From positions 1 to 54,779 of the forward strand of contig JBLFZA010000001.1 in assembly GCA_047610025.1 (NCBI GenBank): DNA of 54,779 nucleotides, written 5' to 3'. Positions 3,374 to 47,971 of this stretch are shown here, in pieces. Each line of letters begins with the position of its first letter. The first letter of the stretch is position 1. A program made the translations under genes and the position numbers. This DNA comes from Bradymonadia bacterium. GTDB taxonomy: Bacteria > Myxococcota_A > Bradymonadia > REDH01. The notes beneath the pieces are model-generated. The model saw only the letters and a list, made by a program, of their open reading frames with translations, was not told where the DNA came from and did no database searches.

Positions 3374-3587
3374 AGCAAAGCGTCTCACGGGCTGTGGCAG
3401 GTGTTCTGAACACGTTGTGCACGCACTTGCAACCGAGGAGCACGGTTCCCAACGCGCGTCGATGAGGCGCGTGAGGGGCGCCGATTCACGGGGGGACACC
3501 TGCGCACAAGCTATACGGGTTTCGCGTCCTCGGATGCCGCGTGCTAGACTCTCGCACTCCATTGTCCCCCCGCTGCAGAGACTCACG

Positions 3588-26608: not shown

Positions 26609-29600
26609 ATGAACTCTCGTCCCCTCTGTCGTGCTCTCAGCCTATGCTTGCTGACGTTGTTCGCGTGCTCCGATGAGCAGGTGAGCGAGCCCTCAACAGA
26701 CACCGGCCTCACGCTATCCGACGTGGACGAGACGCGAGACGCCAGCGTGGCCTCGCTGATTGAGGACGCGGACCTGGCGATCGAATTCGAAGGATCGTGG
26801 GACCCCGCGACCGGTGTGTTCGATATCGCGCCGGTTCGAGTGATGACCATGGGGCTCGACTTCGACGAAGCCACAGGGGAACTGAGGCGTTCCGAGCAAG
26901 GCCTCTATTGTGCGATTCGCACGAGCGCTGGTGTGCGTGACACACTTGTTCTGTCCACGGACCCTGCGACGATTGGTACTCACGCGGATGGACCGACAGG
27001 CCCCTGCGGCGTCGGTGGCGCTCCATTCAACCTCGCCTACGACAGCCCACTGGCGTCAGGCGCTCTGTGTGCAGAGGTCAGCATTCGCTCGAGTTTCGAG
27101 TCGCTTGAGCTGACCAACGTGCATGCGATGATCACTGAGATCAGCAGCGAACCCAATCGCGCCTACACGTATGCGGAGTTCCTGACCCTCGGCTTAGGAA
27201 ACGGCGCACCGTCGCCTATCGGCTTTGGAGCGCCCAGCGACCAGTTTGGAGGGCTCTTCTCCTACGGGTCCATCGCTCCGGCGGCCACGTCCGCGGAACG
27301 GTGGGTGTTCCGTTATGACGGCCAGGTGTTCACGTTCAGCGGGATACTCAAGGCGACGATCGTAGAGTCGTGCAATGGCTTCGATGATGACTGTGATGGC
27401 ACCGTGGATGAAAGCTCAGGCTGCTACCCCAATGGCGACCAGTGCCTGTCAGACGCCGACTGCCAGAGCTCGTTCTGTGACGCTTCCATTCGCCAATGCG
27501 ATGGCAGCCTGCTGCCGGAAGATTGCACGAATGGCGTAGATGACAACGGCGATGGCGACATCGATTGCCTCGACCGGCGCTGCGCCGGTTTGGACGGCTG
27601 CGCCGATTTCGGTTGCCTTAATGGAAATCTCGGAAGCCCGGTGTCGATCTTCGACCCGGGCGGCGCGAGCATGAGCGTCGTCGTTGGCGACGACGCCAAA
27701 ACCGTCTCTGAAGAGTTCTCGGACTTCAGCCTCGTGAACACGCAGTGTGGCTCGAACTTCGCCGGCGCCGAGCGCGCTTTCCTGTGGGAAGCCCCGGTGG
27801 CCGGCGACTACCGATTCGCTGGAATGAGTGACGAGTTTGATGTCGCGCTGATCGTCACGCGCGCCGCAGGCTGCCCCTTCGACCTCGACGCTGATTTCGA
27901 TGATGTGCGCGCGAGCTGTTCGGACAACGTTTCAGGCATCGGTGGCGAGAGCGTTGCTCTGAGCGCAGCCGCGGGCGAGACCTTCGTCGTCATTGTCGGT
28001 AGTGCTGTTGCCTCGGACGACCCGCTTGGTTTTGGCGACTTTGAACTCGTCGTCGAGAAGACCTCACTCTGTGGTGATGGCTTCCACGATCCCTACAGCG
28101 ATTTGGTCGGCACACCAGACGAGTTCTGCGACGACGGCGGCGCATCGGCGACGTGCGATGAAGACTGCACCGAGATTATCTGCAACGACGGCGTCATCAA
28201 TCAGGTGATTGAGTCCTGCGAAGACGGCAACGCCGTCGCGACGGACGGCTGCTCGGAACTTTGTGTGACAGAGGTCGGCTGGGACTGCTCGTTGATAGGC
28301 CAGCCTTGCACCGAGATTTGCGGTGACTCGCTGATTGTCGGCGGCGAAGGCTGTGACGACGGCAATGATGATGGCGGCGATGGCTGCCCTGTCGACTGTA
28401 ACGCGGTCGAGTCGGGTTGGGACTGCACCGCTCCTGGCGTCGCGTGCGACGAAGTCTGCGGCGATGTGCTGCGCGTCGGCGCGGAAGCCTGTGATGACGG
28501 CAACTTCGTCGATGGCGATGGCTGCACACTTGACTGTCTCACTGTCGAGGACGGCTACCGCTGCCCTGGCGCGGGTGGTGTGTGCACGGACATTGATGAG
28601 TGTGCAGAGGCGTCGGACGACTGCTCCGAGAACGCGGCGTGCACGAACTCGGTTGGGTCGTTCTCGTGTGTTTGCAACTCCGGGTTCAGCGGAGACGGCG
28701 TCGTATGTGGGAACATCGACGAGTGCGCCGGCGGATTGGACAACTGCAACGCCGACGCCACCTGCACGGACACCTCGGGCTCGTTCACATGCGCCTGTAA
28801 CTCCGGGTTCAGCGGAGACGGCCTGATCTGCGCGGACATCGACGAGTGCCTGGGCACTCCCTGCGATGCTGATGCGCTTTGCGCCAATGGCATTGGAGAC
28901 TTCGCTTGCACATGCAATGCGGGTTACAGCGGCGACGGCGTCGTCTGCGACGACATCGACGAGTGCGGCGAAGGCACCGACAACTGCGCGGCGAACACGA
29001 CCTGCAGCAACTTACCCGGCACGTTTGGGTGCGCTTGCGCGCCAGGCTTCGAAGGCGACCCGCTCGTTGGGTGCACGGACATCGATGAGTGTCTGGCGAA
29101 CCCATGTGATGGGTCGGCTAGCTGTTTGAATGTTGTCGGCGGCTTCTCTTGCACCTGTGGCGCCGGGTACGTTGGCGACGGGTTCACCTGCACCAACGTC
29201 GACGAGTGCACCGAGGGCTTGGACAACTGCGGCGCCAATAGCGCGTGCACGAACCTCGACCCCGACACGGACGGCGCGCCGTTTGAATGCGGCTGTCTCC
29301 CCGGCTTCGATGGGGACCCGATAGCGGGGTGCGCGGACCTCGATGAGTGTGTCTTGAACACGGACAACTGCAGCGATAGCGCAATCTGCGCGAACACGGT
29401 GGGGGCGTTCGCGTGCACCTGCTTACCGGGCTTCGTCGGAGACGGTGTGTCGTGCGGCGACCTCAACGAGTGTGTGACCGGCGACAACGACTGCGACGGC
29501 AACGCTACCTGTCAGAATACGACGGGCGACTTCCTCTGCATCTGCAACCCTGGGTTCCAAGGCACAGGCGACGTCTGTACGGACCGCGACGAGTGCGCGG

Positions 29601-31744
29601 CGAGCGCGGACGACTGTTCGGCTGACGCGACCTGCGCGAACCTCGACTACGTTGTGGAGCCGAACCCGTTCACCTGCACCTGCAACCCCGGCTACGGGGG
29701 GGATGGCGTGACGTGTGGCGATCTGGATGAGTGCACGCTGGTCACCGACGACTGCGATGCAAACGCGAGCTGTAGCAACAACATTGGTGGCTTCACGTGC
29801 TCCTGCGCCGCGGGCTACACGGGCACCGGCCAAGTCTGCACAGACGTGAACGAGTGCCTGACCAACAACGGCGGGTGTCTTGGCAACGCCATCTGCAACA
29901 ACTCGCCGGGCACGTCGAGCTGTTCCTGCCCATCGGGCTACGAGTTAGCGGGCGACGGTGTGAGCTGTGTCGACCTGAACGAGTGCACGCTCGGTACTGA
30001 CAACTGCTCGGCGGACGCGACGTGTTCTAATGCCGCTGGAGGATTCACTTGTGGATGCAACACTGGATTCTCCGGAGACGGAGTGACGTGCGCCAACGTG
30101 AACGAGTGTTCGGTAGGCACCGACAACTGCAACTCGAACGCAGCGTGCAGCGATTTGACCCCTTCGGTGGGTAATGGCTTCGCCCGCTTCGCTTGCGCGT
30201 GCAACACGGGGTACAGCGGGGACGGCGTCACGTGTCTCGATAACAACGAGTGTTCCCTCGGCACGGACAACTGCGCTGACGCGGCGATTTGTACCAACAC
30301 GCCGGGTGCGTTCACGTGTGACTGCCGCGAAGGCTTCACCGGTAACGGCCTCAACTGCACAAACGTGAATGAGTGCGCAGCCGAGACAGATAACTGCCAC
30401 CCCGATGCTGGCTGCGCAGATGTGGTGCCCTCCGTCGGGAACGGCTGGGATCGCTTCTCTTGCACGTGCAACAGCGGTTACAGCGGGGACGGTGTCACGT
30501 GTAACGACATCAACGAGTGCATCGGTGACCCGTGCGGTATCGGCACGACGTGTACGAACACGGCGGGCAGCTACACGTGCCAGTGCACCACGGGTTACTC
30601 GGGTGGAGATGCCTACGCGGCTGGTTGCTACCCAGTTTGCGGCGATGGTTTGGTGCGGACCGGCCCTGGCGCGTCCGGGAACCAGAACTCGGAGCAGTGT
30701 GACTATGGTCAGGGCGGCGTTGATGGCCCCGGTGCTCCGGCATGTGAGAGCGATGGCGGGTGCGGATACTGCGACTCAAACTGCGATAATGCGGCGACCA
30801 GCGTCAACGCCACGGGGTGTGACAATGGCTACGTCGACGACGACGGCGACGGCGACCCCGACTGCGAAGATTCGATCTGCAGCGGCGTGTTTGGCTGTTA
30901 CGCGTGGGTGTGCAGTCAGATTGACGACTTCATGACCCGTGAGGGCACGAAGTCCGGCAACCTCAGCGGCAACGACTACGCGTTCCAGTACCCCTACAGC
31001 TGTAACCCCTACAACTGTAACGCCTACGATTGTAACTCGTACTCTTGCGGATGGAATGGTTGGAGCACTTGCTACAACACCTGCTACAACACCTGCTACG
31101 ACACCTGCTACGCGCAGCATGGGGACGACTACTCCGTGCTCTTTCAATCGCCGAATCAGTACCGCAATATCGAGGTCGAGACCGTTACACCGACGGCCTT
31201 CGACACCTACATGTTTGTGAATCGTGACGAACGTATGTGTGGTGGGACATCGGCCGATCACTCCGACGATGATGGCGGTGTTGGTTCTTTGTCGCGCATC
31301 ACGTTCGCATCATGGCGCGCCACGCAAGTGCACACTGTGGTCGTTGAGGAGTACCGAACAAACTCGGCTGCTGCCGGCGCTGCGGTGACTGTCGACTTCG
31401 ACGTTCAGGGATGCCAGGGCGGTTTCCAGACGGACTGTAATGGCGTCTGCCAGCCCTCCACTTGGATTGGCAACGGAACGTGTAACGATGGTCAGGTCGC
31501 GTACCAGACGGGTGACGTCAACGCTGATTTCCGCTGTGGCACGTCGTACACTGGCGAGGTCTGTGACTGTACGGGCAACGCTCGCGGGGAGTGCGGCCAG
31601 TCGACGTCATGCGCACAGCAGTCTACGACGTGCTGGGACCTTTGGGGCGCATTCAGCTGCGATGAGCATCGCACGCGACAATGCGACAATTGTGGATGTG
31701 GTCAGTGCACCGGCTGGTCTGGTTGGTCTGGCGGTGGATGCTAG
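26609..31744 (+). CDS. Giant exported lipoprotein with cysteine-rich myxobacterial repeats and 16 tandem calcium-binding EGF-like domains
   Basis: Lipoprotein signal MNSRPLCRALSLCLLTLFAC. C.DG.D.NGDGD.DC modules are present, plus about four CGD...E.CDDGN...DGC repeats and 16 copies of D/N-x-D/N-E-C...C.N..G.F.C.C..G[FY].GDG..C. The C-terminal region has a C/Y/N micro-repeat and a beta-sandwich-like module. Confidence 0.9.
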   Translation: MNSRPLCRALSLCLLTLFACSDEQVSEPSTDTGLTLSDVDETRDASVASLIEDADLAIEFEGSWDPATGVFDIAPVRVMTMGLDFDEATGELRRSEQGLYCAIRTSAGVRDTLVLSTDPATIGTHADGPTGPCGVGGAPFNLAYDSPLASGALCAEVSIRSSFESLELTNVHAMITEISSEPNRAYTYAEFLTLGLGNGAPSPIGFGAPSDQFGGLFSYGSIAPAATSAERWVFRYDGQVFTFSGILKATIVESCNGFDDDCDGTVDESSGCYPNGDQCLSDADCQSSFCDASIRQCDGSLLPEDCTNGVDDNGDGDIDCLDRRCAGLDGCADFGCLNGNLGSPVSIFDPGGASMSVVVGDDAKTVSEEFSDFSLVNTQCGSNFAGAERAFLWEAPVAGDYRFAGMSDEFDVALIVTRAAGCPFDLDADFDDVRASCSDNVSGIGGESVALSAAAGETFVVIVGSAVASDDPLGFGDFELVVEKTSLCGDGFHDPYSDLVGTPDEFCDDGGASATCDEDCTEIICNDGVINQVIESCEDGNAVATDGCSELCVTEVGWDCSLIGQPCTEICGDSLIVGGEGCDDGNDDGGDGCPVDCNAVESGWDCTAPGVACDEVCGDVLRVGAEACDDGNFVDGDGCTLDCLTVEDGYRCPGAGGVCTDIDECAEASDDCSENAACTNSVGSFSCVCNSGFSGDGVVCGNIDECAGGLDNCNADATCTDTSGSFTCACNSGFSGDGLICADIDECLGTPCDADALCANGIGDFACTCNAGYSGDGVVCDDIDECGEGTDNCAANTTCSNLPGTFGCACAPGFEGDPLVGCTDIDECLANPCDGSASCLNVVGGFSCTCGAGYVGDGFTCTNVDECTEGLDNCGANSACTNLDPDTDGAPFECGCLPGFDGDPIAGCADLDECVLNTDNCSDSAICANTVGAFACTCLPGFVGDGVSCGDLNECVTGDNDCDGNATCQNTTGDFLCICNPGFQGTGDVCTDRDECAASADDCSADATCANLDYVVEPNPFTCTCNPGYGGDGVTCGDLDECTLVTDDCDANASCSNNIGGFTCSCAAGYTGTGQVCTDVNECLTNNGGCLGNAICNNSPGTSSCSCPSGYELAGDGVSCVDLNECTLGTDNCSADATCSNAAGGFTCGCNTGFSGDGVTCANVNECSVGTDNCNSNAACSDLTPSVGNGFARFACACNTGYSGDGVTCLDNNECSLGTDNCADAAICTNTPGAFTCDCREGFTGNGLNCTNVNECAAETDNCHPDAGCADVVPSVGNGWDRFSCTCNSGYSGDGVTCNDINECIGDPCGIGTTCTNTAGSYTCQCTTGYSGGDAYAAGCYPVCGDGLVRTGPGASGNQNSEQCDYGQGGVDGPGAPACESDGGCGYCDSNCDNAATSVNATGCDNGYVDDDGDGDPDCEDSICSGVFGCYAWVCSQIDDFMTREGTKSGNLSGNDYAFQYPYSCNPYNCNAYDCNSYSCGWNGWSTCYNTCYNTCYDTCYAQHGDDYSVLFQSPNQYRNIEVETVTPTAFDTYMFVNRDERMCGGTSADHSDDDGGVGSLSRITFASWRATQVHTVVVEEYRTNSAAAGAAVTVDFDVQGCQGGFQTDCNGVCQPSTWIGNGTCNDGQVAYQTGDVNADFRCGTSYTGEVCDCTGNARGECGQSTSCAQQSTTCWDLWGAFSCDEHRTRQCDNCGCGQCTGWSGWSGGGC
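28589..30628 (+). repeat. Array of 16 tandem cbEGF-encoding units (~120-140 bp each)
   Basis: I counted these units: DIDECAEA, NIDECAGG, DIDECLGT, DIDECGEG, DIDECLAN, NVDECTEG, DLDECVLN, DLNECVTG, DRDECAAS, DLDECTLV, DVNECLTN, DLNECTLG, NVNECSVG, NNNECSLG, NVNECAAE, DINECIGD. Some nucleotide stretches recur exactly, for example aactccgggttcagcggagacggc twice. Confidence 0.9.
31070..31111 (+). repeat. 12-bp tandem repeat (tgctacaacacc x3.5) encoding CYNTCYNTCYDTCY
   Basis: Direct reading: units at 31070-31081 and 31082-31093 are identical, 31094-31105 has one substitution, and a partial fourth unit follows. Confidence 0.9.
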
Positions 31745-34215
31745 TCGAGTCCGAAATCACGTGCGCGGCGGGCCTTAATGCCCGCCGCTTTTCGTTCGGC
31801 CTGACGGTATGGCTGCTCATCCAGGCTCTCGCCGTCGTGATGCTCTCAGCATGCTCGAGCGGCGGCCGGTCGTCTGACGATGTCGTGATTGGCGTGCCGG
31901 ACCTCGATGCAGGCCAAGACAGTCTTCGAGATCCAGAGGACTCTCTCGGGCCGCTGCCTGATGCAGGGGACGATGCGCATGACGTGACAGCCGTTGACGG
32001 CGATAGCGATACAGATGACCGCACGGAACCCGATGTCGAGAACCCTTGCGGCTGTTCACTCGAGGAAGTGTGTGTCGCGGGTGTCTGTCGCACCGCGTCG
32101 CGGGGAGGCTGTAAGCTTGGGGAGGTGCCTACGCTCGATGGGCGCTGTTTGTTAAGGTGCGAGGACTCATCGACCTGCGCGCCGGGGTCGTTCTGCGAAG
32201 AGGGACGATGTTCGTGGGGCTGTGAAGCCGCCGCTGATTGCGGCGCGAACGAGCAGTGTGAGCGCGAGGCGTGCGTAGCGAGTTGCGGTGAGCGGAGTCC
32301 TTGCGCTGCCGGTCAGTGCATCGCGGGCGTTTGTCGGGCGAGTCTCTGTGCCTCTGACTGCGGCGCGGGCGCGCGCTGCGTCGACGAGGTCTGCATCGTT
32401 ACGGGGGATCGAACTTGCGACGCGGAAGAGCAGTGCGCTCGGTCTGAGCGTTGTATTGACGCAGAGTGCCAGTCGGTCGCTGGAGAGGGTGCGGTTTTCG
32501 CAAGCATCGAGTCTGGTCTGGACTTGCACAGATTCGGTACTGATGGGTTGGACGAATTGGGCTTCGGAGGAGCGATTGCGCCAGGCGATTTTGACGGAGA
32601 TGGAGACATCGATTTGGCGCTCGCCATCGATTTGAACGGAGACGGGTGCGTCTACTGGAACAGAGATGGGCGATTCGAGAGAGCCGGTGCTACCTGTAAT
32701 GAGTGGACGAACGGTGAGTCGCTGAGCAGCGCAGACCTCGATGGGGACGGTCGGGATGAGTTACTGATCGGACGAGTCGGGGGGGTAGGGCTGTTTTCGC
32801 CCGCGGATGGCATAATGCTCGTGGAGCTCGACGTCATTGATGAGGGTTCTGGCGCGCCAATCTTCGTGGCGAGTCTGCTGCCGTTTGATGTCGATGCCGA
32901 CGGTCAGTGGGAGTTGTTGGCTGGCACGAGCATCGTGCTCACTCAGCCAGGTGACCGGATAGCTCGGGCGCCGAACTTCGTCGTGTCGGTCGGCACGTCG
33001 CCTTGGTCATTGACTGTGGATGACCGGCACTATGGCTTCGAAGATCGCGGCCAGGCAAACACGTTTGCGGTCTTCGATTGGGATGATGACGGCCTCCACG
33101 AGGTCATGATCGTGAACGACAGTTTCAGCTCCGATACTGCCCGCAATACAAGCGAACAGCCGGGGCTGCTCATGACGGTTGGGTTTCCTGGCTCTTCAGA
33201 TGTCTGGGCTGCGTCGCCAATTCTACCCGATGAGAAGGCCTGGGGCTCGTTCATGGGCGCCGTATGGACAGCGTGGAATGGACACGATGGGTTGTACTTG
33301 ACCGACCGAACGTCGAATCGATTTTTAGTTTGGGAAGGTACGGAGTTCGCCGTTGATCTCGGCGCGGCGTTCAATCTTCTGGTCGATCGCGCGGGTCCTG
33401 CTGATAGCGGGCTATTCAGCTGGAGCGTCATTTCCGCCGATTTCGATTTGGACGACGACGAAGACCTGCTGATTTCTCAAGGGTCAGCCGAGCTCGGAGT
33501 AGGGAGCACCGAACCGTGGCATCAGACGACGTTGCTTATCCAAAATCCATCGGGAGCAGCCGCGCGAATTGAGGGAGGCTTCGGGTTTAGTTCGCCGGTC
33601 GATCGGCTGAGCGATGAGGTTTTTCGGTATGCGTCGTCAAGAGCCGCGCTGGCGCTGGACCTCGACGCCGACGGTCGGCTGGAGGTCGTCATGACCCACC
33701 TCTTCGGCGCCGTGGAGCATTATGAGGAAGTGGGCGACCCGTCGCGTTGTGCGGTGCTGGCTCGCTCGCGCGTCGTGCTGGCGGCTGGCTGGGGCGTCGA
33801 TTGGGCGCCGGCGCGTGGCGCCCGATGGCGGCGCTCCAACAACTTCGGTCACACCTTCTCGTCGCCTGGGCCAACCATCGTCGCGGATCGACGCTCGGGG
33901 GTGGTGCGCTTCCCCAGCGGCGCCGTAGCGTCTTTCGATTGCGAGGCCGATCAGCAGCTGATTGTGGAGCCGGATTGGATTGCGCGAGAGACGGGCTCCG
34001 GCGATTTTCGCATCGATGCTGCGGTGCTTGAACTCGGAGAGATCTACACGATAGCCGCGGTGATTCGGTTCGCCGACGGCACCGCCCGTCAAGGCACGGC
34101 GACTAGGGATCCCCAGACCGGGTTGTGGCGGGTGACGGACGCGTCTGCTGAAGACGATATCATGCTGCGCATCAACGGCCGCTGGGTGCGGCGCTGGTGG
34201 AGCGGGTCCCTCTAG
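31738..34215 (+). CDS. Lipoprotein with N-terminal cysteine-rich repeats and FG-GAP/VCBS beta-propeller repeats (CRTAC1/ASPIC-like architecture)
   Basis: ATG 31738 overlaps the stop of the upstream gene. Signal and lipobox: RRFSFGLTVWLLIQALAVVMLSAC. An acidic linker is followed by multiple C..g..C...C motifs. FG-GAP Ca-binding loops: DFDGDGDIDL, DLDGDGRDELL, DVDADGQWELL, DWDDDGLHEVM, DFDLDDDEDLL, DLDADGRLEVV. Confidence 0.85.
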   Translation: MLVESEITCAAGLNARRFSFGLTVWLLIQALAVVMLSACSSGGRSSDDVVIGVPDLDAGQDSLRDPEDSLGPLPDAGDDAHDVTAVDGDSDTDDRTEPDVENPCGCSLEEVCVAGVCRTASRGGCKLGEVPTLDGRCLLRCEDSSTCAPGSFCEEGRCSWGCEAAADCGANEQCEREACVASCGERSPCAAGQCIAGVCRASLCASDCGAGARCVDEVCIVTGDRTCDAEEQCARSERCIDAECQSVAGEGAVFASIESGLDLHRFGTDGLDELGFGGAIAPGDFDGDGDIDLALAIDLNGDGCVYWNRDGRFERAGATCNEWTNGESLSSADLDGDGRDELLIGRVGGVGLFSPADGIMLVELDVIDEGSGAPIFVASLLPFDVDADGQWELLAGTSIVLTQPGDRIARAPNFVVSVGTSPWSLTVDDRHYGFEDRGQANTFAVFDWDDDGLHEVMIVNDSFSSDTARNTSEQPGLLMTVGFPGSSDVWAASPILPDEKAWGSFMGAVWTAWNGHDGLYLTDRTSNRFLVWEGTEFAVDLGAAFNLLVDRAGPADSGLFSWSVISADFDLDDDEDLLISQGSAELGVGSTEPWHQTTLLIQNPSGAAARIEGGFGFSSPVDRLSDEVFRYASSRAALALDLDADGRLEVVMTHLFGAVEHYEEVGDPSRCAVLARSRVVLAAGWGVDWAPARGARWRRSNNFGHTFSSPGPTIVADRRSGVVRFPSGAVASFDCEADQQLIVEPDWIARETGSGDFRIDAAVLELGEIYTIAAVIRFADGTARQGTATRDPQTGLWRVTDASAEDDIMLRINGRWVRRWWSGSL

Positions 34216-34274
34216 GCTCGGGTGTTCAAGCGGAGGTCAGCCTACACTGCCGGCTGCGTACGCCTCTCGGAGCG

Positions 34275-39439: not shown

Positions 39440-39466
39440 GAGCTAAGGAACCAGAGAAGGCAGGGA

Positions 39467-40858
39467 CTAATCGGTCACGAAGGTGTCGCTGATTACGACG
39501 CCGGCTCCGCTCACGGGCGACACACAAGGTGTAGACGCTCGCAACGTGCTGGCCGTGATGGCAATCGGATCCGAGACGGCCAGATCCGCACGGTACACCT
39601 GCACAGTGCCAGTGCGGCCGCTGCCAAAGACGAGGCCTGCCCCATCGCGGCGGACGTACGCGTCGCGCTCGGAGGGGCTGGACGTATAAGTCTGCATTTG
39701 ACCGGTCGTTATGTTGAGTCGGCGCAGCGCTGTGATGCCGTCGCCCGAGGCGACAGAGTAGAAGAGCAGTTCGCCCGTGGGGTCGATTCCGAACGCGCCG
39801 CGCATACCGGTTGCCGTGGTCAACTGGATCGGAGTGGCGCCGTCCGCGAGAGTGTCGATCGTGAAGACCTCGACGCCGCCGTCGGCGTCGGAGACATAAG
39901 CGAGGCGCCCATCGTTGATCCACCTCGGGTAGGTGTCCGCGGTGTCGTTGTCGGTGAGCGCGACGAGCTCGGGCGTCTCCGCGTTGACGTCGAACAAGTA
40001 GATCTCGTTGTCAGCGTCTTCGTCGCTGCGTCCGTTCAGAGCGATCTCGCCTCCGACGGGGGCCCACGAGAGATTCTCAAAGATCGTCAGCGGAGCGAGC
40101 GAAAACTCCTCCGGCTGCCCCGTCGTCACGTCGACAACGACCAAAGCACGCTCGGCGCTCAGTGTGAACGCAATGAACGCTAAGCGCGTCCCGTCGGGCG
40201 ACCAGGTCGGCGAGAACGTGCTGAGGTAGTCGGTGTCCGCGAAGAGCTGCCGGTCTTCGCCGCCGTCATGTGCCGTGATGAAGACTTGCTCGAGTGTGAG
40301 CGAGCTGGCCTGACGAATGAATGCCACCCAGGGGTTCTCCGCGAGAGGAACCACAACAGGGTACGGATCGGTTGGCCCCGTATCGGTCTCAGTGTCGGCG
40401 TCCTCTTCAACATCTGTTTCGGCGTCGGCGTCGGCATCGGTCTCCACGTCTGTGGTTTCAACGTCCGCCACGTCGGGGTCGATGGTGTCGGCGTCATCTG
40501 CGTCCGAGACGTCAGGCACCTCGGTGTCAGCGTCCTGTTCGACATCCCCGGGAACATCGGGCAGCACGTCATCGACGACATCAGTCGTGACATCGGGGAC
40601 AGTCACATCTTCCTCCGCGTCCGCGTCCGCGCCTGCGTCTAACCCAGTGGTGTCTGCCGCGTCGTCTTGCCCGCAGATGCCGAGAGCCGTGCACACTTGA
40701 CCGCTGTTGCAGTCGTCGTTCGACTCACAGGGGCAAATGAGAGTCGTGCACTCGGAGTCAGAGCCGCTGGTCGAGTCGCCACAGCCAATCGGCGCGATCA
40801 ACATCATGACAAGCGCGGGCAGAGAGAGCTGGCGGTACAATCGTGAAGTCATCGGCAA
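39467..40858 (-). CDS. TolB-like (PD40/WD40-like) beta-propeller lipoprotein with a ~100-aa poly-acidic linker
   Basis: Lipobox LIAPIGC and a small Cys knot. D/E/T/V-rich linker at aa 64-162. PD40-type repeats: FSPTWSPDGTRLAFIA, YPRWINDGRLAYVSD and others. Confidence 0.85.
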   Translation of the reverse strand: MPMTSRLYRQLSLPALVMMLIAPIGCGDSTSGSDSECTTLICPCESNDDCNSGQVCTALGICGQDDAADTTGLDAGADADAEEDVTVPDVTTDVVDDVLPDVPGDVEQDADTEVPDVSDADDADTIDPDVADVETTDVETDADADAETDVEEDADTETDTGPTDPYPVVVPLAENPWVAFIRQASSLTLEQVFITAHDGGEDRQLFADTDYLSTFSPTWSPDGTRLAFIAFTLSAERALVVVDVTTGQPEEFSLAPLTIFENLSWAPVGGEIALNGRSDEDADNEIYLFDVNAETPELVALTDNDTADTYPRWINDGRLAYVSDADGGVEVFTIDTLADGATPIQLTTATGMRGAFGIDPTGELLFYSVASGDGITALRRLNITTGQMQTYTSSPSERDAYVRRDGAGLVFGSGRTGTVQVYRADLAVSDPIAITASTLRASTPCVSPVSGAGVVISDTFVTD

Positions 40859-41051
40859 AGGGCGAAACGGCGAAGAAATGAGTGTTCATGCGCAGTCGCA
40901 CAACATCCATACGATACAGGCGTAAACGAATGCGTTGCAAGCCAACGGCACGTTATGACGTGGTTTTCTTTACGAAGGGTGGCTCTGGGCGCCCGTTTGC
41001 GCGCAATCGCCCGCTGAACGAGCGAAAATCACGCTAGCGGGAGGGCCAGTC

Positions 41052-41147
41052 TTAGGCCACGCGTTGGCGACGAGTACGGAGAACCATGCCAAGCGAGACC
41101 AAGACGAACCATAGGCTCGGCAGCGTGCCGGCAGAGGCGCTACATCC
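41052..41147 (-). other. MYXO-CTERM-type C-terminal sorting signal (Gly-Cys, hydrophobic helix, Arg cluster)
   Basis: GCSASAGTLPSLWFVLVSLGMVLRTRRQRVA* follows a long acidic linker. This matches the GC + TM + RRR layout of MYXO-CTERM as I recall it. Confidence 0.7.
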
Positions 41148-44100
41148 AGACTCGCTGCCTCCGCTGTCTTCGTCGCCGTTCTCCACTCCCCCCTCCGGGT
41201 TGTCCGCCTCGCCGGTATCTGCGCCTGCGGAGTCAGCGTCGGGCACCATGATGTCCGACTCGGCGTCTTCACCGCCGTCGTCCTGACCGGTATCGTCGGT
41301 CGTGCCGTCTTCAGCGTCCGGGGTCGGCGTGTCAGTCTGAACGTCGTCCGTAACGCCGTCTGGCGTGGCGTCGCTGTCCGCATCACCGCCAGCGTCCTCT
41401 TCGACATCCGGGCCAAAAGGCACAATCGCGCAGTCGAGGCCGCAAGCGCCGGGCTCATCGTTGTTGTCCGTGCCGTCGTCGCATTCCTCAGCGCCATCAA
41501 CGATGCTGTCGCCGCACGCGGGCACCCGGCAGTCCAAGCGGCAGACGTCTGGAAGGTCGTCGTTGTCGGCGCCCGCGTCACACTCCTCGTCGCTGTCGAG
41601 GATGCTGTCGCCGCAGTAGGGGAGGGTGCACATGGTTCGGCATGAGTCGCTCTCATCGGCATTCTCCGCCCCTTCATCGCACTCCTCTTCGCCGTTGATG
41701 ACACCGTCGCCGCAGCTTGGCGCAGCGCATTCGAACGAGCACGTCGCGGAGGGGTCATCGCTGTTCGCCTCACCCTCATCACAGGCCTCACCCACATCCA
41801 CGACGGCGTCGCCGCAGAATGGCAGCAGGCAGTCTGCACGGCAGGCGTCGCTGAACTCGTCGCTGTTATCGTCCGCGTCGTCGCACTCTTCGTCGGCGTC
41901 GATGACACCGTCTCCGCAGCTCGGAAGCGTGCAGCTCGTGCGGCACGCGTCGCCGACCTCGTCGTTGTTGAACAGGCCTTCGTCGCAGGCCTCGCCTGAA
42001 TCGACCACGCCATCGCCGCAGCCGGCCGGCATGCAGGTGGTGCGACAGCCGTCGGGCGAATTCCCGTTCGTTTCCCCCGCGTCACACATCTCGCCGGTAT
42101 CCACGATGCTGTCGCCACATCGCGGCAACTCGCAACCCGGGCGACACGCGTCGGCCGTCGCCTCATTCGCCGGGCCCTCATCGCACGCTTCATCTGGGTC
42201 CACGACGCCATCTCCACAGAACGGAGCGCTGCAATCCGTGCGGCACGCGCCCGGTGTGATGTCCGAGTTCTCGTCGCCATCGTCGCAGTCTTCGTCGCCT
42301 TCGGTCACGCCGTCGCCGCATTCAGGGCCAGGGACGGTGACGAGCAACTCGAAGTCTCCACAATCTCCTTCGTAGCCGCTGACGGCGAGGAAGACGGTTT
42401 GGTTGTCAATCAGCGTCGCTTGCAGCTCAGAGCGCCGCCCAACTGTGTCGTCGTTGCAGTCGATTTGGGAGCCCCCACAAGACTCGCTGAGCGTCAGCAC
42501 GGTGTCGAAGTCCGTCAGATCGGAGTCCGTCGTAAACGTGTAGGTGCCCGCTGTCGGGGCCGTGAACGCGATCGGGAACGCCGCGCCGTCTTCGCCGTCA
42601 CCGCAGTTGGGGGCATCCTCGAAGCCGAACTCACAGCTGTCGCCAACAAATGAGCCGATCGCGAAGTCGAGTGTCGCCGTCAACAGGCAGCCGTCGAACG
42701 CGCAGAGCGCGTTACAGCCATCGAACTCGACGTCGTTTCCGTCGTCGCAGGCTTCGCCTTCATCAACGGTCCCATCGCCGCATCGCGGCACATCTTCGAA
42801 CACGCAGTCCGCGTCGCAGCCGTCACCGTCATCGACGTTTCCGTCGTCGCACTGCTCGTCGGCTTCCAGCCGGGAGTTCCCGCATTCGTCTGTCGTGGCG
42901 AGCAGTTCGAAGACACCGCAATTGTTTTGGAATCCGTGTACAAAGACAATGACCGCTTCTCCGTCGTTCAGGTCCAACGACAAAAGCGATCGCGTGTCGT
43001 CGTCGTCCACATCGTCGTTGCAGTCGAGTTCGTCGCCGAGGCACTCCGAGCGCGAGTAGATGACGGTGTCCATGTCTGTCGCGTCGCCGAGCGTGTCAAA
43101 GCGGTAGGTACCCGCTTGCGGGGCGAGGAAGGCGAATGAACGCTCGAGGCTTGTCGCCGTGTCGTCACCGCATGTCGCGCCATTGTCAGAGTTCTCCCCA
43201 TCACAGCTGTCCAAGACAACCGGGCTGTTGAGCACGAGGACGGTATCTTCCGTCACGCAGCTGTCGGGCTCTTCCAACAGACAGAGCGCCGAACACCCAT
43301 CGTCGCTGTCGAGGTTACCGTCGTCACACTGCTCGCCGTCAGTCGTTTCGCCATCTCCACAAGGCGAGACGCTGACGTTAAGCCCGTAGTCGCCGCAGTT
43401 GGTGCGAAAGCCGGAGACGTACACGACGATCTCGTCGCCGCTGTCTAGCGTCAGGGAGAACGAGGACTCCTCGTCGGCGCCGGGTAAATCGGAGTCATCG
43501 TTGCACGCCAGCTCGTCTGCGCCGCAGGCCGTTCGAGCGTAGAGGACGGTGTCAAATTCGGTCGATTCGGACAGGGTGTCGAACGAGTACATGCCGTCGC
43601 GGGGTGCGATGAACAGGTAGCCATCGTCTCCACCGGAGGTGCCGTCTCCGCAGCTGGCCACACCATCGACGTCCGCTCCGTCGCACGTATCTCCGATCGT
43701 GGTGGTGCCAACCAACAACGAGAAGTCGTTCAGCGGACAGAGCTCTTGGCGACAGGTCGCGCTGCATCCGTCGCCATCTTCGACGTTACCGTCATCACAC
43801 GCTTCGTCGCCTTCGATGTCTCCGTTGCCGCATTCGACAACGCACGTGTTGCTGCAACCGTCGTTGGAGATGTCGTTTCCATCATCACAGAACTCATCGA
43901 GGCCGGGCTGAATGACGGCGTCGCCGCAGAACTCGGTGCTGCAAATCGCGCTGCATCCGTCCCCAGAGTCGAGGTTGTTGTCGTCGCACTCTTCGCCTTC
44001 ATCGGTCACGCCATCGCCACACGTCGCGCTGGCGCCGCACAGGCGCGCGCTTGGCCAATTCGCGTTGTTGCAGAGGTCGTCGATCGCTCGCCGGACGTAC

Positions 44101-45002
44101 GTGACGTCCTCCGCCGTCCCGCTGTCTTCTGCGAGCACCCGCACCCGGTTGCATCCGGCATCGTCGTCAAACGAGTAGTCCGTCGCGCCGCGGACGAGGA
44201 TTCCCACGAGCTCACGGGCGTCGTTGAACACGCCTGAGCCCGAGTTGCCGCCGAAGGTGTCGAGGGTGGCTTCGAAGTAGTCCAAGCTGTCGGGCCGCCC
44301 GTCGGTGACGACGCCTCCTTCGTCAACCTTGGCAGGAATGCCGCTTCCGAACCCGATGACGGTCAAGTCGCTGTCGGCGGGCAGCGCGACGTCCACCAAA
44401 TTCACGTTGGCAGGTGTTCTGCCGACGACTGGGCGGTCCAACTCAACGATGGCGTAATCTAGGGTGCCGGCATCGATGGTCACAACAACGGACTCGCATT
44501 CGTACACGTCGTCGGGATCGATCTCCTGCAGGTCGCCGTCGGCTTCGAAGTAGTAGTCGAAGACGTAGAGTTGCGAGCGACATTCGCCGAGGTCCTCGAC
44601 GCAGTGGCCAGCGGTCAGGACGAGGTTGTCATCGATGAGCGTGCCCGAGCAGTTGCCCATCGTCGGATCGTCGAGGAAGCGCTCGTCTGAGCAAAGTCCT
44701 CGAGAGTTTCCGAGCATGTTCCCGAGCGGTATCGCCGTGCCTGCGGGGTCGTCGTCAAAGGCCGTGACGTCGATATCATCCCGCAAAACGAGCGCGACAA
44801 TGGACTGATCGAGCAACGTCTGCAGCGCTGGGTCGGCAACCGCGTAATAGTCGGTGCGGTCATCGTCGCCGTAAACGACGGTCTGTTCCGCGCTGCGTTC
44901 GGCGCTCGGCTGCGAGCCATCGTGAGAGAGCTTGGTTCCTTCACAAGCGAGCAGAGCGGCGCATGCGCTCAACGAGAGAGCGGTCAGTCGAGCGATAGAC
45001 AT
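41052..45002 (-). CDS. Exported trypsin-like (S1 family) serine protease with 15 cysteine-rich repeats, three beta-sandwich modules and a C-terminal MYXO-CTERM sorting signal
   Basis: Signal MSIARLTALSLSACAALLAC. Catalytic triad context: CSGTLIDDNLVLTAGHC (His), DYAIVELD (Asp), GGNSGSGVF (Ser). I counted 15 CGD[GSA]...E.CD[DEA]G...C...C repeats. C-terminus: GCSASAGTLPSLWFVLVSLGMVLRTRRQRVA. Confidence 0.92.
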   Translation of the reverse strand: MSIARLTALSLSACAALLACEGTKLSHDGSQPSAERSAEQTVVYGDDDRTDYYAVADPALQTLLDQSIVALVLRDDIDVTAFDDDPAGTAIPLGNMLGNSRGLCSDERFLDDPTMGNCSGTLIDDNLVLTAGHCVEDLGECRSQLYVFDYYFEADGDLQEIDPDDVYECESVVVTIDAGTLDYAIVELDRPVVGRTPANVNLVDVALPADSDLTVIGFGSGIPAKVDEGGVVTDGRPDSLDYFEATLDTFGGNSGSGVFNDARELVGILVRGATDYSFDDDAGCNRVRVLAEDSGTAEDVTYVRRAIDDLCNNANWPSARLCGASATCGDGVTDEGEECDDNNLDSGDGCSAICSTEFCGDAVIQPGLDEFCDDGNDISNDGCSNTCVVECGNGDIEGDEACDDGNVEDGDGCSATCRQELCPLNDFSLLVGTTTIGDTCDGADVDGVASCGDGTSGGDDGYLFIAPRDGMYSFDTLSESTEFDTVLYARTACGADELACNDDSDLPGADEESSFSLTLDSGDEIVVYVSGFRTNCGDYGLNVSVSPCGDGETTDGEQCDDGNLDSDDGCSALCLLEEPDSCVTEDTVLVLNSPVVLDSCDGENSDNGATCGDDTATSLERSFAFLAPQAGTYRFDTLGDATDMDTVIYSRSECLGDELDCNDDVDDDDTRSLLSLDLNDGEAVIVFVHGFQNNCGVFELLATTDECGNSRLEADEQCDDGNVDDGDGCDADCVFEDVPRCGDGTVDEGEACDDGNDVEFDGCNALCAFDGCLLTATLDFAIGSFVGDSCEFGFEDAPNCGDGEDGAAFPIAFTAPTAGTYTFTTDSDLTDFDTVLTLSESCGGSQIDCNDDTVGRRSELQATLIDNQTVFLAVSGYEGDCGDFELLVTVPGPECGDGVTEGDEDCDDGDENSDITPGACRTDCSAPFCGDGVVDPDEACDEGPANEATADACRPGCELPRCGDSIVDTGEMCDAGETNGNSPDGCRTTCMPAGCGDGVVDSGEACDEGLFNNDEVGDACRTSCTLPSCGDGVIDADEECDDADDNSDEFSDACRADCLLPFCGDAVVDVGEACDEGEANSDDPSATCSFECAAPSCGDGVINGEEECDEGAENADESDSCRTMCTLPYCGDSILDSDEECDAGADNDDLPDVCRLDCRVPACGDSIVDGAEECDDGTDNNDEPGACGLDCAIVPFGPDVEEDAGGDADSDATPDGVTDDVQTDTPTPDAEDGTTDDTGQDDGGEDAESDIMVPDADSAGADTGEADNPEGGVENGDEDSGGSESGCSASAGTLPSLWFVLVSLGMVLRTRRQRVA
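41420..42320 (-). repeat. Nine back-to-back ~33-aa (99-bp) cysteine-rich repeat units
   Basis: The run goes from CGDGVTEGDEDCDDGDENSDITPGACRTDCSAPF to CGDSIVDGAEECDDGTDNNDEPGACGLDCAIV. Coordinates are approximate. Confidence 0.8.
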
Positions 45003-45109
45003 AAGTGGTTCTTAGAGGAACAGAGGGGGCCGAGTGCTGGTGGACAGGCGGCCCAATGGAGCGAGCAGACAACGAGCATCATCCGCGGGTTCTAACGTCT
45101 TCGGTGACG

Positions 45110-45916
45110 CTAGGGCGGCGACGAGCCGACCTCAAGCCATGCGGGCAACATCGTCATGGCTGAAGCCGTCTCTACGATTTGCTCGATCGCGTCAACTTCA
45201 CCTCCAAGGTCGTCCATGGCGGCGAGGAGATTCTCGGCTGGCGCTCGAATCGGGCCCTCGAGCGCCGCGAAGGCGGTACGCGCCGCGTTGGTCACGATTC
45301 CGAGGCCGAGGGGAGCCGCGCTGTCAGTGAGCGCGCCCTCGACGCGCGTCCATCCGTCAAGGGCGCTCCGTAGTGCCTCTGCTGCCGGGGAGACCTGGGC
45401 GCGAACGGTCACGAGATCGCGTTCGAGGGTGGTCGCTTCTTCGCGTAAGCGGAGCAGTTGGGCCCGACTCGTCCACCCCCACGCCGACGAGTTCCAAAGC
45501 TGCGTGAACTCGCGCGAACTCGACTCGCTCGCTTCGAGTCCTGCGAGGATCTCGTCGGCGTCCGCGAGAACGGTCACCAATGAGTCGACGCCAAGGTCTG
45601 CAGCCGCGATGATGTCCGAACGGCGCCGCACGACTTCCCACGGTTGGGTCGCTTGGCCCAGCACGGTGATTTCAGAATCTCTCCACCGGTCGAATCGATC
45701 AACGACGTCGGTGTGGGTCCGCAGCGCGACGAGGGTGGTTCGAACGCGCAGTAATTGTTGGGTGCGCTCGGCGACACGCTCCGACAGGTCTGGTGTCGCC
45801 CTGCCGATCTCTCGAAGCTGGTGAGTCATGATCACGGGCTCGACAACGAACATCCAAGCGCTGCCGGTGAGCAGCGCAAAAACCAACAGCGCCACGATGA
45901 AGCGTAGGAGCTTCAT
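45110..45916 (-). CDS. Hypothetical single-pass membrane protein with helical/coiled-coil ectodomain
   Basis: MKLLRFIVALLVFALLTGSAWMFVV is followed by an Ala/Leu/Arg/Glu-rich helical sequence. Same strand as its neighbours and tightly spaced (the upstream gene stops at 45956). The alternative start is ATG 45949. Confidence 0.6.
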   Translation of the reverse strand: MKLLRFIVALLVFALLTGSAWMFVVEPVIMTHQLREIGRATPDLSERVAERTQQLLRVRTTLVALRTHTDVVDRFDRWRDSEITVLGQATQPWEVVRRRSDIIAAADLGVDSLVTVLADADEILAGLEASESSSREFTQLWNSSAWGWTSRAQLLRLREEATTLERDLVTVRAQVSPAAEALRSALDGWTRVEGALTDSAAPLGLGIVTNAARTAFAALEGPIRAPAENLLAAMDDLGGEVDAIEQIVETASAMTMLPAWLEVGSSPP

Positions 45917-45955
45917 CGTGGCGCTGGCTCTGCTGCGTTGTGCAGTCACTGGGTT

Positions 45956-47971
45956 CTACTCAAGCACGTAGGCGGCGCCAGCGGCGGCCCCGTCATTCGA
46001 GTCACGGATGGCGCCCACCGCGATCCGGTTTCCGGTAGTGGCGACGGCTGCGCCGAAGCGCGCACCTGTGGTGGCGTCGCCGGCGACAAAGGAGCCGCCG
46101 TCGGCCCAAATGGTGCCATCGAATTCGTAGACGAAAACAACTCCGCCTCGGCTGACCGCGCCCGAGTTATCGCGGAACGCTCCGACTGCGAGGGTGTCGC
46201 CGGAGAGCGCGACGCTCTGCCCGAAGCGATCTCCCGCTACCGTGCTGGGGTCGCGGAGCGATGCTGCCAACGCCCAGACGCCGCCAACCAGATTGTAGAT
46301 GTAGGCTTCGCCGTTTGCGCCGCTGGCGCCAATTGCCAGCCGCGTCGCGGCGCCACTCACCGAACCGCCGAAGCCACCGCCAACCGCGCCGACAGGAGAC
46401 GCGATAACGGCTTCTTCTGCCCAGGTTCCTTCGGTGTTTCGGAACACGTACACCGCACCATGCGACCCTTCTCCAGGAGCGCCAACGAAGGCGACATCGC
46501 CGACGATGTCGACCGAGCTGCCGTAGCTCGCGTCGCTGTTCAGAGCGACGCTCGGCGTCAACGCCGAGGCAGTCCACACTCCGACAACCTCTGCGTAGAC
46601 GTAGGCGGCCCCGGGGCCGGCCACGTCGAAGCCCGTTCCGCTGCCCGTCCCCGGCGCGCCGACGATGAAGGTGTCGCCGTCAACGCCAACAGCGTCGCCG
46701 AACTTAGCACGTTCAACGGTGCCCCCAGGAGTCAAGGTGGCATCAAGAGTCCAGGTTGTTCCTGCTCGCGTGAAGACGTGAGCTTCCCCATTGTCATCTG
46801 CTTGCCAGCCGCCGACGACGATCAACTCATCGTCAATCGCCACGGCCGAACCAAACCGGTCCCACTCCGCCACGACGCCCACTCCGAGCTCTTGCTCGAG
46901 GACCCAACCGGCGATTCGCTCGTGCCGGTAGACGTACGCCGAGCCTCCGTAGCGGATATGGCGGTCCGATTTGTCCGCTCCGACGATCATGCGGATACCG
47001 TCGGCGGCAATGCTCGAGCCCAATTCATCTCTAGCCTCCGTATCACCGACGACATGCGATTCGCTCAAGCGCGCCTCGGATGCAAAAGCGTCGGGGCAGC
47101 TGAAGACGCCAACATCCACGGCCGCGCCGTCATTCTGGACCTCGACGCGGTGCCAGAGCTCCCCTGGGAAGCCGGCAACGCCATCACATTCCAGCACCTC
47201 AAGCCCAGCGGCACGCACTGAGCCATCGCGCGGGTACATGAATCGAACGACCGTTGAGCAGTCGGCGGCGTCCGACACGTAGAAGCGGAAGTGTACGATG
47301 CCGAGGACTGCGACATCGGCGACGGTGCTGCTCCACTTGTCGGACGAGAAGGTGGCAGACAACGTGCCATGGTCGAGCGTTTGAATGCAGACGAATTCGT
47401 CGCCCGCAACATCCTCTAAGAGGTTCTGAATCCGGAGCTGGAGGTCGAACTCAGTCTCCGTTGGCACCGGACAGACGTCCGGTCCCCAGCTGCCAACGGT
47501 ACTCGTGCTGGTGATTTCGGCTTGAATCCACGTCAAGCCGCCAGAGTCGGCGCAGGCTGTCACGGGTACCCGCCGAAGCGCGGCGACCGAAGACTCGCCG
47601 TCGCCGGGCCAGAGGTCCCCATCATCGGAGGCACATGTCGAAAGCACCGACTCGAAGTATCGGAAGCGATAGGTGCTCGGCAGCGAAAGAAACGGCTTCA
47701 CCGTCCACTTTGAACCCGTGAAGGTCATGGGCACCGGCGCGAAGCCCTGGATCTCTAAGCACGCGGTCGCGCTGCCGGTTATCACGGAGCCTTGGTAGCG
47801 GAACTGCACCTTCACGGTGGGCGTGCCCTTCGGAATCAGCCGTTCGCCGGACTGGTCAACTGCCGTGAGTTCGACGCCGTCGTGGTCCAGTTCTGACGCG
47901 CAGGCGCCTACCGACGCGACGGCTGTCACGAGCGCCGCGCGATGCAGCAAGGTCGTTAGCAGGTTTCTCAT
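45956..47971 (-). CDS. Lipoprotein with two N-terminal beta-sandwich-like domains and a seven-blade integrin-alpha-type FG-GAP propeller
   Basis: Signal MRNLLTTLLHRAALVTAVASVGAC. Seven [FY]G.[SA]V...G....VGA blades: LGSSIAADGIRMIVGA, RFGSAVAIDDELIVVG, KFGDAVGVDGDTFIVGAP, YGSSVDIVGDVAFVGAP, GFGGSVSGAATRLAIGA, RFGQSVALSGDTLAVGA, RFGAAVATTGNRIAVGA. Confidence 0.85.
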   Translation of the reverse strand: MRNLLTTLLHRAALVTAVASVGACASELDHDGVELTAVDQSGERLIPKGTPTVKVQFRYQGSVITGSATACLEIQGFAPVPMTFTGSKWTVKPFLSLPSTYRFRYFESVLSTCASDDGDLWPGDGESSVAALRRVPVTACADSGGLTWIQAEITSTSTVGSWGPDVCPVPTETEFDLQLRIQNLLEDVAGDEFVCIQTLDHGTLSATFSSDKWSSTVADVAVLGIVHFRFYVSDAADCSTVVRFMYPRDGSVRAAGLEVLECDGVAGFPGELWHRVEVQNDGAAVDVGVFSCPDAFASEARLSESHVVGDTEARDELGSSIAADGIRMIVGADKSDRHIRYGGSAYVYRHERIAGWVLEQELGVGVVAEWDRFGSAVAIDDELIVVGGWQADDNGEAHVFTRAGTTWTLDATLTPGGTVERAKFGDAVGVDGDTFIVGAPGTGSGTGFDVAGPGAAYVYAEVVGVWTASALTPSVALNSDASYGSSVDIVGDVAFVGAPGEGSHGAVYVFRNTEGTWAEEAVIASPVGAVGGGFGGSVSGAATRLAIGASGANGEAYIYNLVGGVWALAASLRDPSTVAGDRFGQSVALSGDTLAVGAFRDNSGAVSRGGVVFVYEFDGTIWADGGSFVAGDATTGARFGAAVATTGNRIAVGAIRDSNDGAAAGAAYVLE

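Follow-up and report, generated by a model that had tools for sequence, protein, structure and literature searches.

A partly conserved neighbourhood of predicted surface proteins around a candidate stalked MYXO-CTERM protease in a Bradymonadia bacterium

Introduction

Do adjacent genes that all appear to encode exported proteins form one machine, a looser neighbourhood, or a mere row of unrelated surface proteins? We addressed this question for eight consecutive genes, called here g1 to g8, at positions 26609 to 47971 of contig JBLFZA010000001.1 (assembly GCA_047610025.1) from a Bradymonadia bacterium; "the window" refers to the whole stretch analysed, positions 1 to 54,779 of that contig. 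A sequence-only reading had described the region as an island of exported proteins made of animal-type extracellular-matrix parts, and had proposed that the eight products form a single undescribed apparatus for adhesion, matrix formation or proteolysis, corresponding to no named bacterial system. Hydrolysis held at the cell surface is of interest in these predators because bradymonabacterial supernatants are reported to lack killing activity and predation appears to depend on contact (PMC7460792).

We lean, with some reserve, towards regarding the region as a partly conserved surface-protein neighbourhood for tethered proteolysis and binding, to which modular adhesin-like lipoproteins have been added, and not as a single eight-part machine. 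Two lines of evidence behind this reading are the linkage of g8, g7, g6, g5 and g2 in relatives and the architecture of g6.

Results

Gene order in relatives

The relatives available for comparison were short metagenome contigs, and neighbours were looked up for four of the seven homologues of g7. A g8-like gene was located directly upstream of the g7-like gene in L037, L038 and L039-L041, three lineages distinct by more than 50% divergence of their g7 homologues. The g8 orthologue of L039/L040 was full-length, 40% identical to g8 and ended in the same ...YV[FL]E motif, those of L037 and L038 being partial. In L039, we also recovered an orthologue of g6 two genes downstream of the g7-like gene, with 58-59% identity over the head domain and running into a CGDG repeat until the end of the contig. 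On the 5-kb contig L010, the C-terminal half of a g6-like gene was followed on the same strand by a g5-like and then a g2-like gene, with gaps of 70-100 nt between them. Its g6-like part, 36% identical to g6 over 600 aa, comprised a module like the pre-peptidase C-terminal (PPC) domain, CGDG repeats, a linker of acidic residues and a tail resembling MYXO-CTERM. The g5-like protein of this contig (P0123) was the nearest homologue of g5 and the only close one (42-46% identity), and the FG-GAP protein encoded downstream of it, about 30% identical to g2, occupied the place held by g4/g3 in the window. Judged from these sequences, at least two related lineages keep a linked core composed of g8-g7, g6, g5 and g2, with neither order nor operon structure being fixed.

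None of the contigs examined contained all eight genes, nor even six, as a fixed unit, and no relative had more than three of them together on these short contigs. The co-conservation that a single apparatus would call for was thus recovered in part: four or five genes stay linked in relatives, whereas the eight-gene block was not seen and both insertion and substitution were present. The three nearest homologues of the g6 protease head that were looked up (45-50% identity) stood in unrelated gene contexts, the members of this family, more than 1000 in number, being mostly solitary, and the homologues of g5 with 27-28% identity were located among housekeeping genes.

The most distant g7 homologue looked up, P0237 (contigs L042-L045), had no FG-GAP_2 neighbour and was followed by a gene for a 1005-aa lipoprotein with CNGLDDDCDG (MopE-type) repeats (L042, 10001-13908; also in L043-L045), whose C-terminal region looked propeller-like when read by eye. 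Pairing with large surface lipoproteins of this sort may be a general feature of the g7 family. Separately, genes that converge on the g8-g7-like pairs of L037 (1441-1761, minus strand) and L038 (2029-3123, minus strand) encode acidic, thrombospondin-type-3-like calcium-binding repeats, and their products end in textbook MYXO-CTERM tails (TIGR03901, 29 bits for L037).

A stalked protease candidate with a MYXO-CTERM tail

The gene g6 (41052-45002, minus strand) encodes a predicted surface protease of 1316 aa. Its parts follow in the order signal peptide or lipobox, S1 protease head, TIGR02232 repeats interleaved with three PPC-like modules, about nine CGDG repeats, acidic linker and MYXO-CTERM tail, the disulfide-rich stalk spanning about 1000 residues. 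Seven DUF4215 stretches were scored by Pfam in this protein, and 17 CG[DN][GSA] repeat starts were obtained by motif count. The head matched both Trypsin_2 (53.8 bits, cut-off 27.6) and Trypsin (38.2 bits, cut-off 20.6), and its motifs TAGHC, DYAIVEL and GNSGSG aligned with TNGHC, DFAVIKT and GNSGSA of the Bacillus intermedius glutamyl endopeptidase (1p3c), so that the head can be assigned from its sequence to the V8/glutamyl-endopeptidase branch of S1 serine peptidases, with its predicted triad intact. The tail (...SGCSASAGTLPSLWFVLVSLGMVLRTRRQRVA), scanned alone, scored 22.0 bits against TIGR03901.2 (cut-off 20, E 1.6e-4). In the scan of the full-length protein, only the tail of NF045638 was matched, not TIGR03901, and the g6 tail resembled the tails of several myxosortase-dependent families. 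The trypsin-like protease with a MYXO-CTERM anchor described previously was therefore recovered, with a triad aligned to 1p3c and a tail above the cut-off.

The head was 43-55% identical to more than 100 members of the family annotated as "V8-like Glu-specific endopeptidase", and no protein more than 55% identical to it was retrieved in a large database search. The best matches came from metagenome-assembled genomes (MAGs) of Bradymonadia and Myxococcales, one of them in the same samples. Such matches, the myxobacterial repeats and sorting signal, and a g7 homologue from a Bradymonadia MAG point to Myxococcota, probably Bradymonadia, as the source of the window, which stems from a metagenome. 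Many of the more than 1000 head homologues carry the Pfam PPC domain PF04151 and have lengths of 430-560 aa, so that g6 can be considered an enlarged representative of a family already known.

MYXO-CTERM proteins undergo cleavage by a myxosortase and reach the surface via type II secretion (T2SS) (PMC11980579), and Bradymonadales possess abundant MYXO-CTERM proteins together with the myxosortase MrtP (bioRxiv 10.1101/2023.06.07.544157). By analogy, we infer that g6 is a surface-tethered protease, and its unusually long protease-on-a-stalk design may be new. Both g6 (LLAC) and its L039 orthologue (4493-5491, LGAC) have an N-terminal lipobox Cys; the latter ends at the contig edge, before any tail region. 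It might be that g6 is lipid-anchored at both ends, an arrangement that the published model for TraA, the Myxococcus receptor of similar layout, does not cover.

A module common to three of the proteins

All-against-all BLASTP and an alignment of eight copies (A4) revealed a module of about 125 aa framed by Cys residues, with two copies in g1 and three each in g4 and g6, which confirmed for these three proteins the earlier observation that the giants of the region share their modules. The AlphaFold2 model of this module (predicted local distance difference test, pLDDT, 77; predicted template-modelling score, pTM, 0.74) resembled in fold the collagen-binding domain of ColG (1nqj; Foldseek E 4.6e-5, TM-score 0.64 on query and 0.81 on target) and the pre-peptidase C-terminal domain, 5sv5 being matched as well. 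No sequence match to Pfam PF04151 was detected, even at E up to 1. According to the model, what had been called a Cys-framed sandwich thus has the PPC/collagen-binding-domain fold, in agreement with the protease family, many members of which have a Pfam PPC domain after the protease domain. The modules common to g1, g4 and g6 indicate domain shuffling, not interaction.

The g8-g7 pair

The 671-aa lipoprotein g8 (45956-47971, minus strand) consists of about 300 aa of N-terminal Cys-containing beta modules and an FG-GAP_2 propeller (Pfam E 1e-47), in which we counted by eye seven FG..V blades, as in the sequence-only reading. It had no match among PDB sequences. Identical g8 genes were present on contigs from three metagenome samples; one of these contigs (L001, from another sample) was 99.99% identical to the window over 12.9 kb and is for this reason uninformative on strain variation.

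The gene g7 (45110-45949, minus strand) encodes a protein of 268-279 aa in which a long helical bundle follows an N-terminal membrane anchor, and it was assigned to no Pfam or NCBIfam family. A word-indexed search found only g7 itself, but its apparent orphan status was rejected when an exhaustive HMMER search gave seven full-length homologues with 22-28% identity, one of them from a Bradymonadia MAG. The AlphaFold2 model (pLDDT 84, pTM 0.74) exhibited a transmembrane helix and, after it, an elongated bundle of helices with a small hairpin. Foldseek searches of this model against the PDB gave no match reaching E 0.001 (TM-score at most 0.42 on query), the structures returned being generic helical bundles (maquettes, ClyA, receptor sensor domains). 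A ClyA-like reading of g7 was dropped, since the small hairpin is not hydrophobic. To judge from sequence comparisons, the g7 family and its pairing with a propeller lipoprotein may be a new, small, unannotated and recurrent two-gene module.

The other propeller and adhesin-like lipoproteins

The two remaining core genes, g5 and g2, both encode propeller lipoproteins. In g5 (39467-40858, minus strand), a PD40 beta-propeller is accompanied by a small Cys knot and an acidic linker. A TolB-like scaffold had been proposed; the match to the TolB propeller was partial, and this label was not retained, since g5 scored 89 bits against TIGR02800 (cut-off 343) over the propeller only, lacked the TolB N-terminal domain (PF04052) and had neighbours that are not tol/pal genes. 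Scanning with a g5 alignment gave one irrelevant Chloroflexota PD40 match in the genome collection and nothing in the metagenomes. The protein g2 (31738-34215, plus strand) is an FG-GAP/VCBS-type propeller lipoprotein with a Cys-rich N-terminal insert; its reading frame opens at 31681, but direct inspection of the sequence gives as its likely start the ATG at 31738, overlapping the stop codon of g1. Pfam detected FG-GAP_3 and FG-GAP in g2. The earlier CRTAC1-like label was likewise abandoned, only FG-GAP repeats being found; the C-terminal 194 aa gave no UnbV_ASPIC match even with the threshold relaxed to E 1. Among PDB sequences, g2 had no match. The metagenome scan with a g2 alignment returned 22 loci that were generic FG-GAP matches, none of which was matched by any of the eight proteins at E 1e-6.

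The 1711-aa lipoprotein g1 (26609-31744, plus strand) comprises an N-terminal domain, a MopE-like acidic Cys motif, a PPC-like module, two to three DUF4215, a calcium-binding EGF (cbEGF) array and a Cys-rich C-terminal region with the second PPC-like module. Besides DUF4215, Pfam scored EGF_3 (E 2.6e-111) and EGF_CA (E 4.6e-89). The motif count gave exactly 16 tandem units starting with [DN]x[DN]EC, in accordance with the earlier count; 15 of them have six Cys and the last segment, as cut, has seven. These are the characteristic features of a calcium-binding EGF array, calcium binding itself being predicted. The 1152-aa Cys-rich lipoprotein g4 (35981-39439, minus strand) contains two TIGR02232 repeats, four acidic double-disulfide repeats, three PPC-like modules and about 360 aa of small disulfide knots, with a weak match to DUF7107. 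From their predicted domains, g1 and g4 both look like calcium-dependent lipoproteins of adhesin type, assembled from the shuffled modules also present in g6.

Finally, g3 (34275-36041, minus strand) is a beta-propeller lipoprotein of 588 aa (or about 575 aa) with an acidic linker, matching FG-GAP_3 and PQQ_2. An assignment to BamB was rejected (30 bits against TIGR03300, cut-off 285; 15 bits against NF008351, cut-off 423), the likeness being that of a generic PQQ-like propeller only. One marginal match was found for g3 among PDB sequences, and the viral-contig scans with g3 and g4 gave nothing. This further propeller lipoprotein, together with g1 and g4, looks like an addition to the core. 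Overall, the Pfam and NCBIfam scans bore out the domain inventory drawn up previously for the eight open reading frames (ORFs), apart from the CRTAC1 and TolB labels.

Export signals

Export signals were read as sequence patterns and are not predictor output. A hydrophobic N-terminus followed by a lipobox with its Cys was present in seven of the eight proteins (g1 LFAC, within LTLFAC; g2 LSAC; g3 LSGC; g4 FAAC; g5 PIGC; g6 LLAC; g8 VGAC), g7 having an N-terminal signal anchor instead. The claim that only exported products are encoded here was thus supported, and with export-type signals in about 5 of the 23 flanking ORFs versus 8/8 in the region, the run of eight is not a background effect. 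Two further lipoprotein genes (50026-51561 and 52211-54739) are located just beyond the block.

Gene layout, transcription signals and composition

The genes g1-g2 on the plus strand and g8-g3 on the minus strand converge. On the minus strand, the gaps are 6 nt (g8 to g7), 107 nt (g7 to g6), 193 nt (g6 to g5) and 27 nt (g5 to g4), and g4 and g3 overlap by about 20-60 nt. All eight ORFs were judged to be real genes, and the gene positions and the 6-190 nt gaps or overlaps given previously agree with these ORFs and spacings. Two long ORFs in alternative frames, one of 436 aa inside g6 (40970-42280, minus strand) and one of 497 aa inside g4 (37917-39410, plus strand), had Ser/Thr/Ala/Arg-rich translations and were discarded as artefacts of GC-rich repeat coding; they are possible false genes for a gene caller.

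Reading the sequence directly, we found a terminator-like hairpin on the plus strand at 31766-31797, GCGGCGGGC-CTTAAT-GCCCGCCGC and then TTTTCGTT, that is, a 9-bp GC stem with a 6-nt loop resembling a canonical intrinsic terminator. It lies just past the g1 stop and within the signal-peptide-coding part of g2. A perfect 17-bp hairpin with a U-rich run was detected by terminator scan and RNA folding at 45877-45926 on the minus strand, directly after the g8 stop and enclosing the ATG and signal-anchor codons of g7 (fold z = -5.3; none of 200 shuffles folded as well). The g8/g7 and g1/g2 junctions therefore exhibit the same arrangement, a hairpin after the stop and within the signal-coding part of the next gene. 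The hairpin at 45877-45926 could be an intra-operon attenuator or an occluder of the g7 start codon. A weak terminator-like hairpin also follows g6.

The GC content was uniform across the region (0.60-0.65), there were no tRNA genes or Rfam matches in it, and no integrase was found among the annotated flanking genes. In the absence of a GC shift, tRNA gene or flanking integrase, a horizontal-transfer island was ruled out; with its ordinary flanks, the region is not a compositional or mobile island, and the term used in the sequence-only reading does not apply in that sense.

Flanking genes in the window

The genes on one flank encode glycogen enzymes, an extracytoplasmic function (ECF) sigma factor, an epimerase and a MerR regulator, and those on the other encode glyoxalase-like, ArsR and SRPBCC proteins. 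At 5673-7730 (minus strand), we observed an ABC-2 permease fused to a CPBP (Rce1-like) intramembrane protease (NF041647, 643 bits), adjoined by an ABC ATPase gene (7727-8476, minus strand). This CPBP protein was rejected as the cognate myxosortase, being a member of NF041647 with 18.7 bits against an MrtP cut-off of 250; it is related to myxosortases only via the generic CPBP core and is not the g6 sorting enzyme. The gene at 3258-5666 (plus strand) specifies a secretion ATPase of the GspE/PilB type that carries a cyclic-nucleotide-binding domain at its N-terminus as well as an MshEN domain, an unusual regulatory fusion. The lipoprotein encoded at 52211-54739 (minus strand) combines a GH113 glycoside hydrolase domain with a C-terminal ankyrin repeat array.

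Discussion

In the scenario that we tentatively favour, a partly conserved neighbourhood for tethered proteolysis and binding, g6 would be the central component. By analogy with TraA and Vibrio VesB, it would cross the inner membrane by the Sec pathway, become lipidated at the Cys of its tail and have this tail cut by a myxosortase, presumably MrtP in Bradymonadales. The lipoproteins with propellers, namely g8 (accompanied by the helical, membrane-anchored g7), g5 and g2, would be ligand-binding or scaffolding partners of g6, or may simply be co-regulated surface proteins. Overall, the proteins would bind and digest external protein, from prey envelope or matrix, at the surface of the cell in a calcium-dependent way, which would suit the contact-dependence of predation reported for Bradymonabacteria.

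Several points weigh against this scenario. In L039, an unrelated lipoprotein gene in convergent orientation separates the g7-like and g6-like genes, and this insertion, together with the hairpins of the window, suggests separate transcripts. The combination in g6 of a lipobox with a C-terminal sorting tag is unexplained by the TraA model, and neither a myxosortase nor the T2SS core was visible in the 55-kb window. The linkage evidence comes from a few short contigs and covers g8, g7, g6, g5 and g2; on relatives' contigs of 2-5 kb, the shared order could be inherited synteny, not functional coupling. As for a role in contact-dependent predation or feeding, it is speculation.

The genes might alternatively be functionally unrelated secreted-protein and lipoprotein genes of a kind abundant in these genomes, standing side by side, with the order seen in relatives reflecting inherited synteny only. 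The dense background of exported proteins, exemplified by the two lipoprotein genes just beyond the block, the varied contexts of the protease family and of the distant g5 homologues, and the uniform GC would all fit this explanation. We nevertheless regard it as rather unlikely, though worth serious attention, since g8- and g7-like genes are adjacent in three lineages that share under 50% identity among their g7 proteins, the g6 orthologue is kept nearby in L039 despite the insertion, and the g6-, g5- and g2-like genes of L010 lie close together on one strand. At the other extreme, all eight proteins could be parts of one coordinated adhesion, matrix or proteolysis apparatus that assemble together, the propellers binding the EGF and Cys-rich modules. 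We consider this improbable. The export of all eight products, the tight spacing on the minus strand, the modules common to g1, g4 and g6 and the linkage of four or five genes speak in its favour; however, at most three of the genes are found together on the short contigs of any relative, a foreign convergent gene is inserted in L039, a g2-like gene replaces g4/g3 in L010, the P0237 subfamily of g7 pairs with a different lipoprotein, most members of the protease family are solitary, g1, g8 and, with a weak signal, g6 are followed by terminator-like hairpins, and module sharing testifies to domain shuffling, not to interaction. What remains of the single undescribed apparatus proposed from the sequence is the presence of export signals throughout and the co-conservation of part of the neighbourhood; the fixed eight-gene unit does not, given also the terminator-like hairpins.

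A more restricted version, in which g8-g7, g6, g5 and g2 would form a dedicated and undescribed surface complex of Bradymonadia-like predators, with propellers that position or gate the tethered protease against prey envelopes and with g1 and g4 as its calcium-dependent adhesins, also seems to us a doubtful proposition. We give very little credence to the possibility that g6 serves in kin recognition or outer-membrane exchange as a polymorphic recognition receptor like TraA, with its neighbours as partners. The layout of g6 (head, Cys-rich repeat stalk, MYXO-CTERM tail) does match that of TraA (PMC3325183), but its head is a protease with an intact triad and not a PA14 lectin domain, its repeats are not those of TraA, and no TraB-like partner with an OmpA domain is encoded among the neighbours (a Pfam scan was negative for PA14 in g6 and for OmpA in all eight proteins). 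No polymorphism was seen either, the single other sample (L001) being nearly identical to the window.

All parts of the region are of known kinds, so that current understanding is not overturned; what may be new is the recurrent core neighbourhood. The statement that no named system corresponds to the region is true for the gene set, whereas its parts are well-known myxobacterial building blocks (MYXO-CTERM, TIGR02232, PPC, FG-GAP, PD40). If the core genes work together, they would offer a concrete candidate for the means by which Bradymonadia keep hydrolytic activity at their surface, and the TraA-type design of head, stalk and MYXO-CTERM would, if the assignment of g6 is true, extend from recognition receptors to enzymes. 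The 16-unit cbEGF lipoprotein g1 is in addition a clean example of animal-type matrix modules reused in bacteria.

Such eukaryotic proteins resemble those of the window in part. The 16 cbEGF units of g1 are of the same textbook type as those of fibrillin, Notch and LTBP, with the [DN]x[DN]EC start, six Cys and C-x-[DN]-x4-[FY]-x-C-x-C, and g8, g2 and g3 have FG-GAP-type propeller repeats in common with integrin-alpha. However, g1, g8, g2 and g3 are bacterial lipoproteins, the EGF array stands together with myxobacterial repeats and PPC-like modules, and the TB/8-Cys domain and the integrin stalk and transmembrane region of the eukaryotic counterparts are absent here. Similarly, g2 differs from CRTAC1/ASPIC proteins by the lack of the defining UnbV_ASPIC domain.

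Among hydrolases, NCBIfam describes other myxosortase-dependent families, such as an M36 metallopeptidase (NF038112) and a phytase-like phosphatase (NF045638). The g6 protein has the protease head and the triad of the V8-like Glu-specific endopeptidase family, followed by modules of PPC-like fold, its nearest solved relative being 1p3c, but typical members have 430-560 aa with zero or one PPC, compared to 1316 aa, three PPC-like modules, about 17 Cys-rich repeats and a membrane-sorting tail in g6. Vibrio VesB, in which a C-terminal sorting tag holds an S1 protease on the surface, provides a precedent (PMC6219818), and g6 and the Vibrio cholerae proteins VesB and VesC are all S1 proteases with a C-terminal tripartite sorting signal and surface retention, the latter being predicted for g6 (PMC6219818). 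VesC was one of the few PDB sequence matches of the g6 head, with marginal similarity (20 bits). The sorting systems differ, g6 having a MYXO-CTERM, which is associated with a CPBP-type myxosortase, and VesB a GlyGly-CTERM, associated with a rhomboid protease (rhombosortase) and T2SS export; VesB also lacks the long repeat stalk of g6.

A close parallel in overall design is TraA (MXAN_6895), in which a head, a Cys-rich stalk and a MYXO-CTERM are combined (PMC3325183). Both proteins have an N-terminal signal, a head, a stalk of disulfide-rich repeats and a tripartite tail composed of a Cys motif, a transmembrane helix and an Arg cluster. They differ in that the head is a V8-like S1 protease in g6 and PA14 in TraA, that the repeats belong to TIGR02232 in g6 and to TIGR04201 in TraA, that g6 has an N-terminal lipobox, and that the conserved neighbours of g6 are propeller lipoproteins and not a TraB partner. 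The g6 stalk is, furthermore, far longer than that of TraA, with three PPC-like modules inserted in it.

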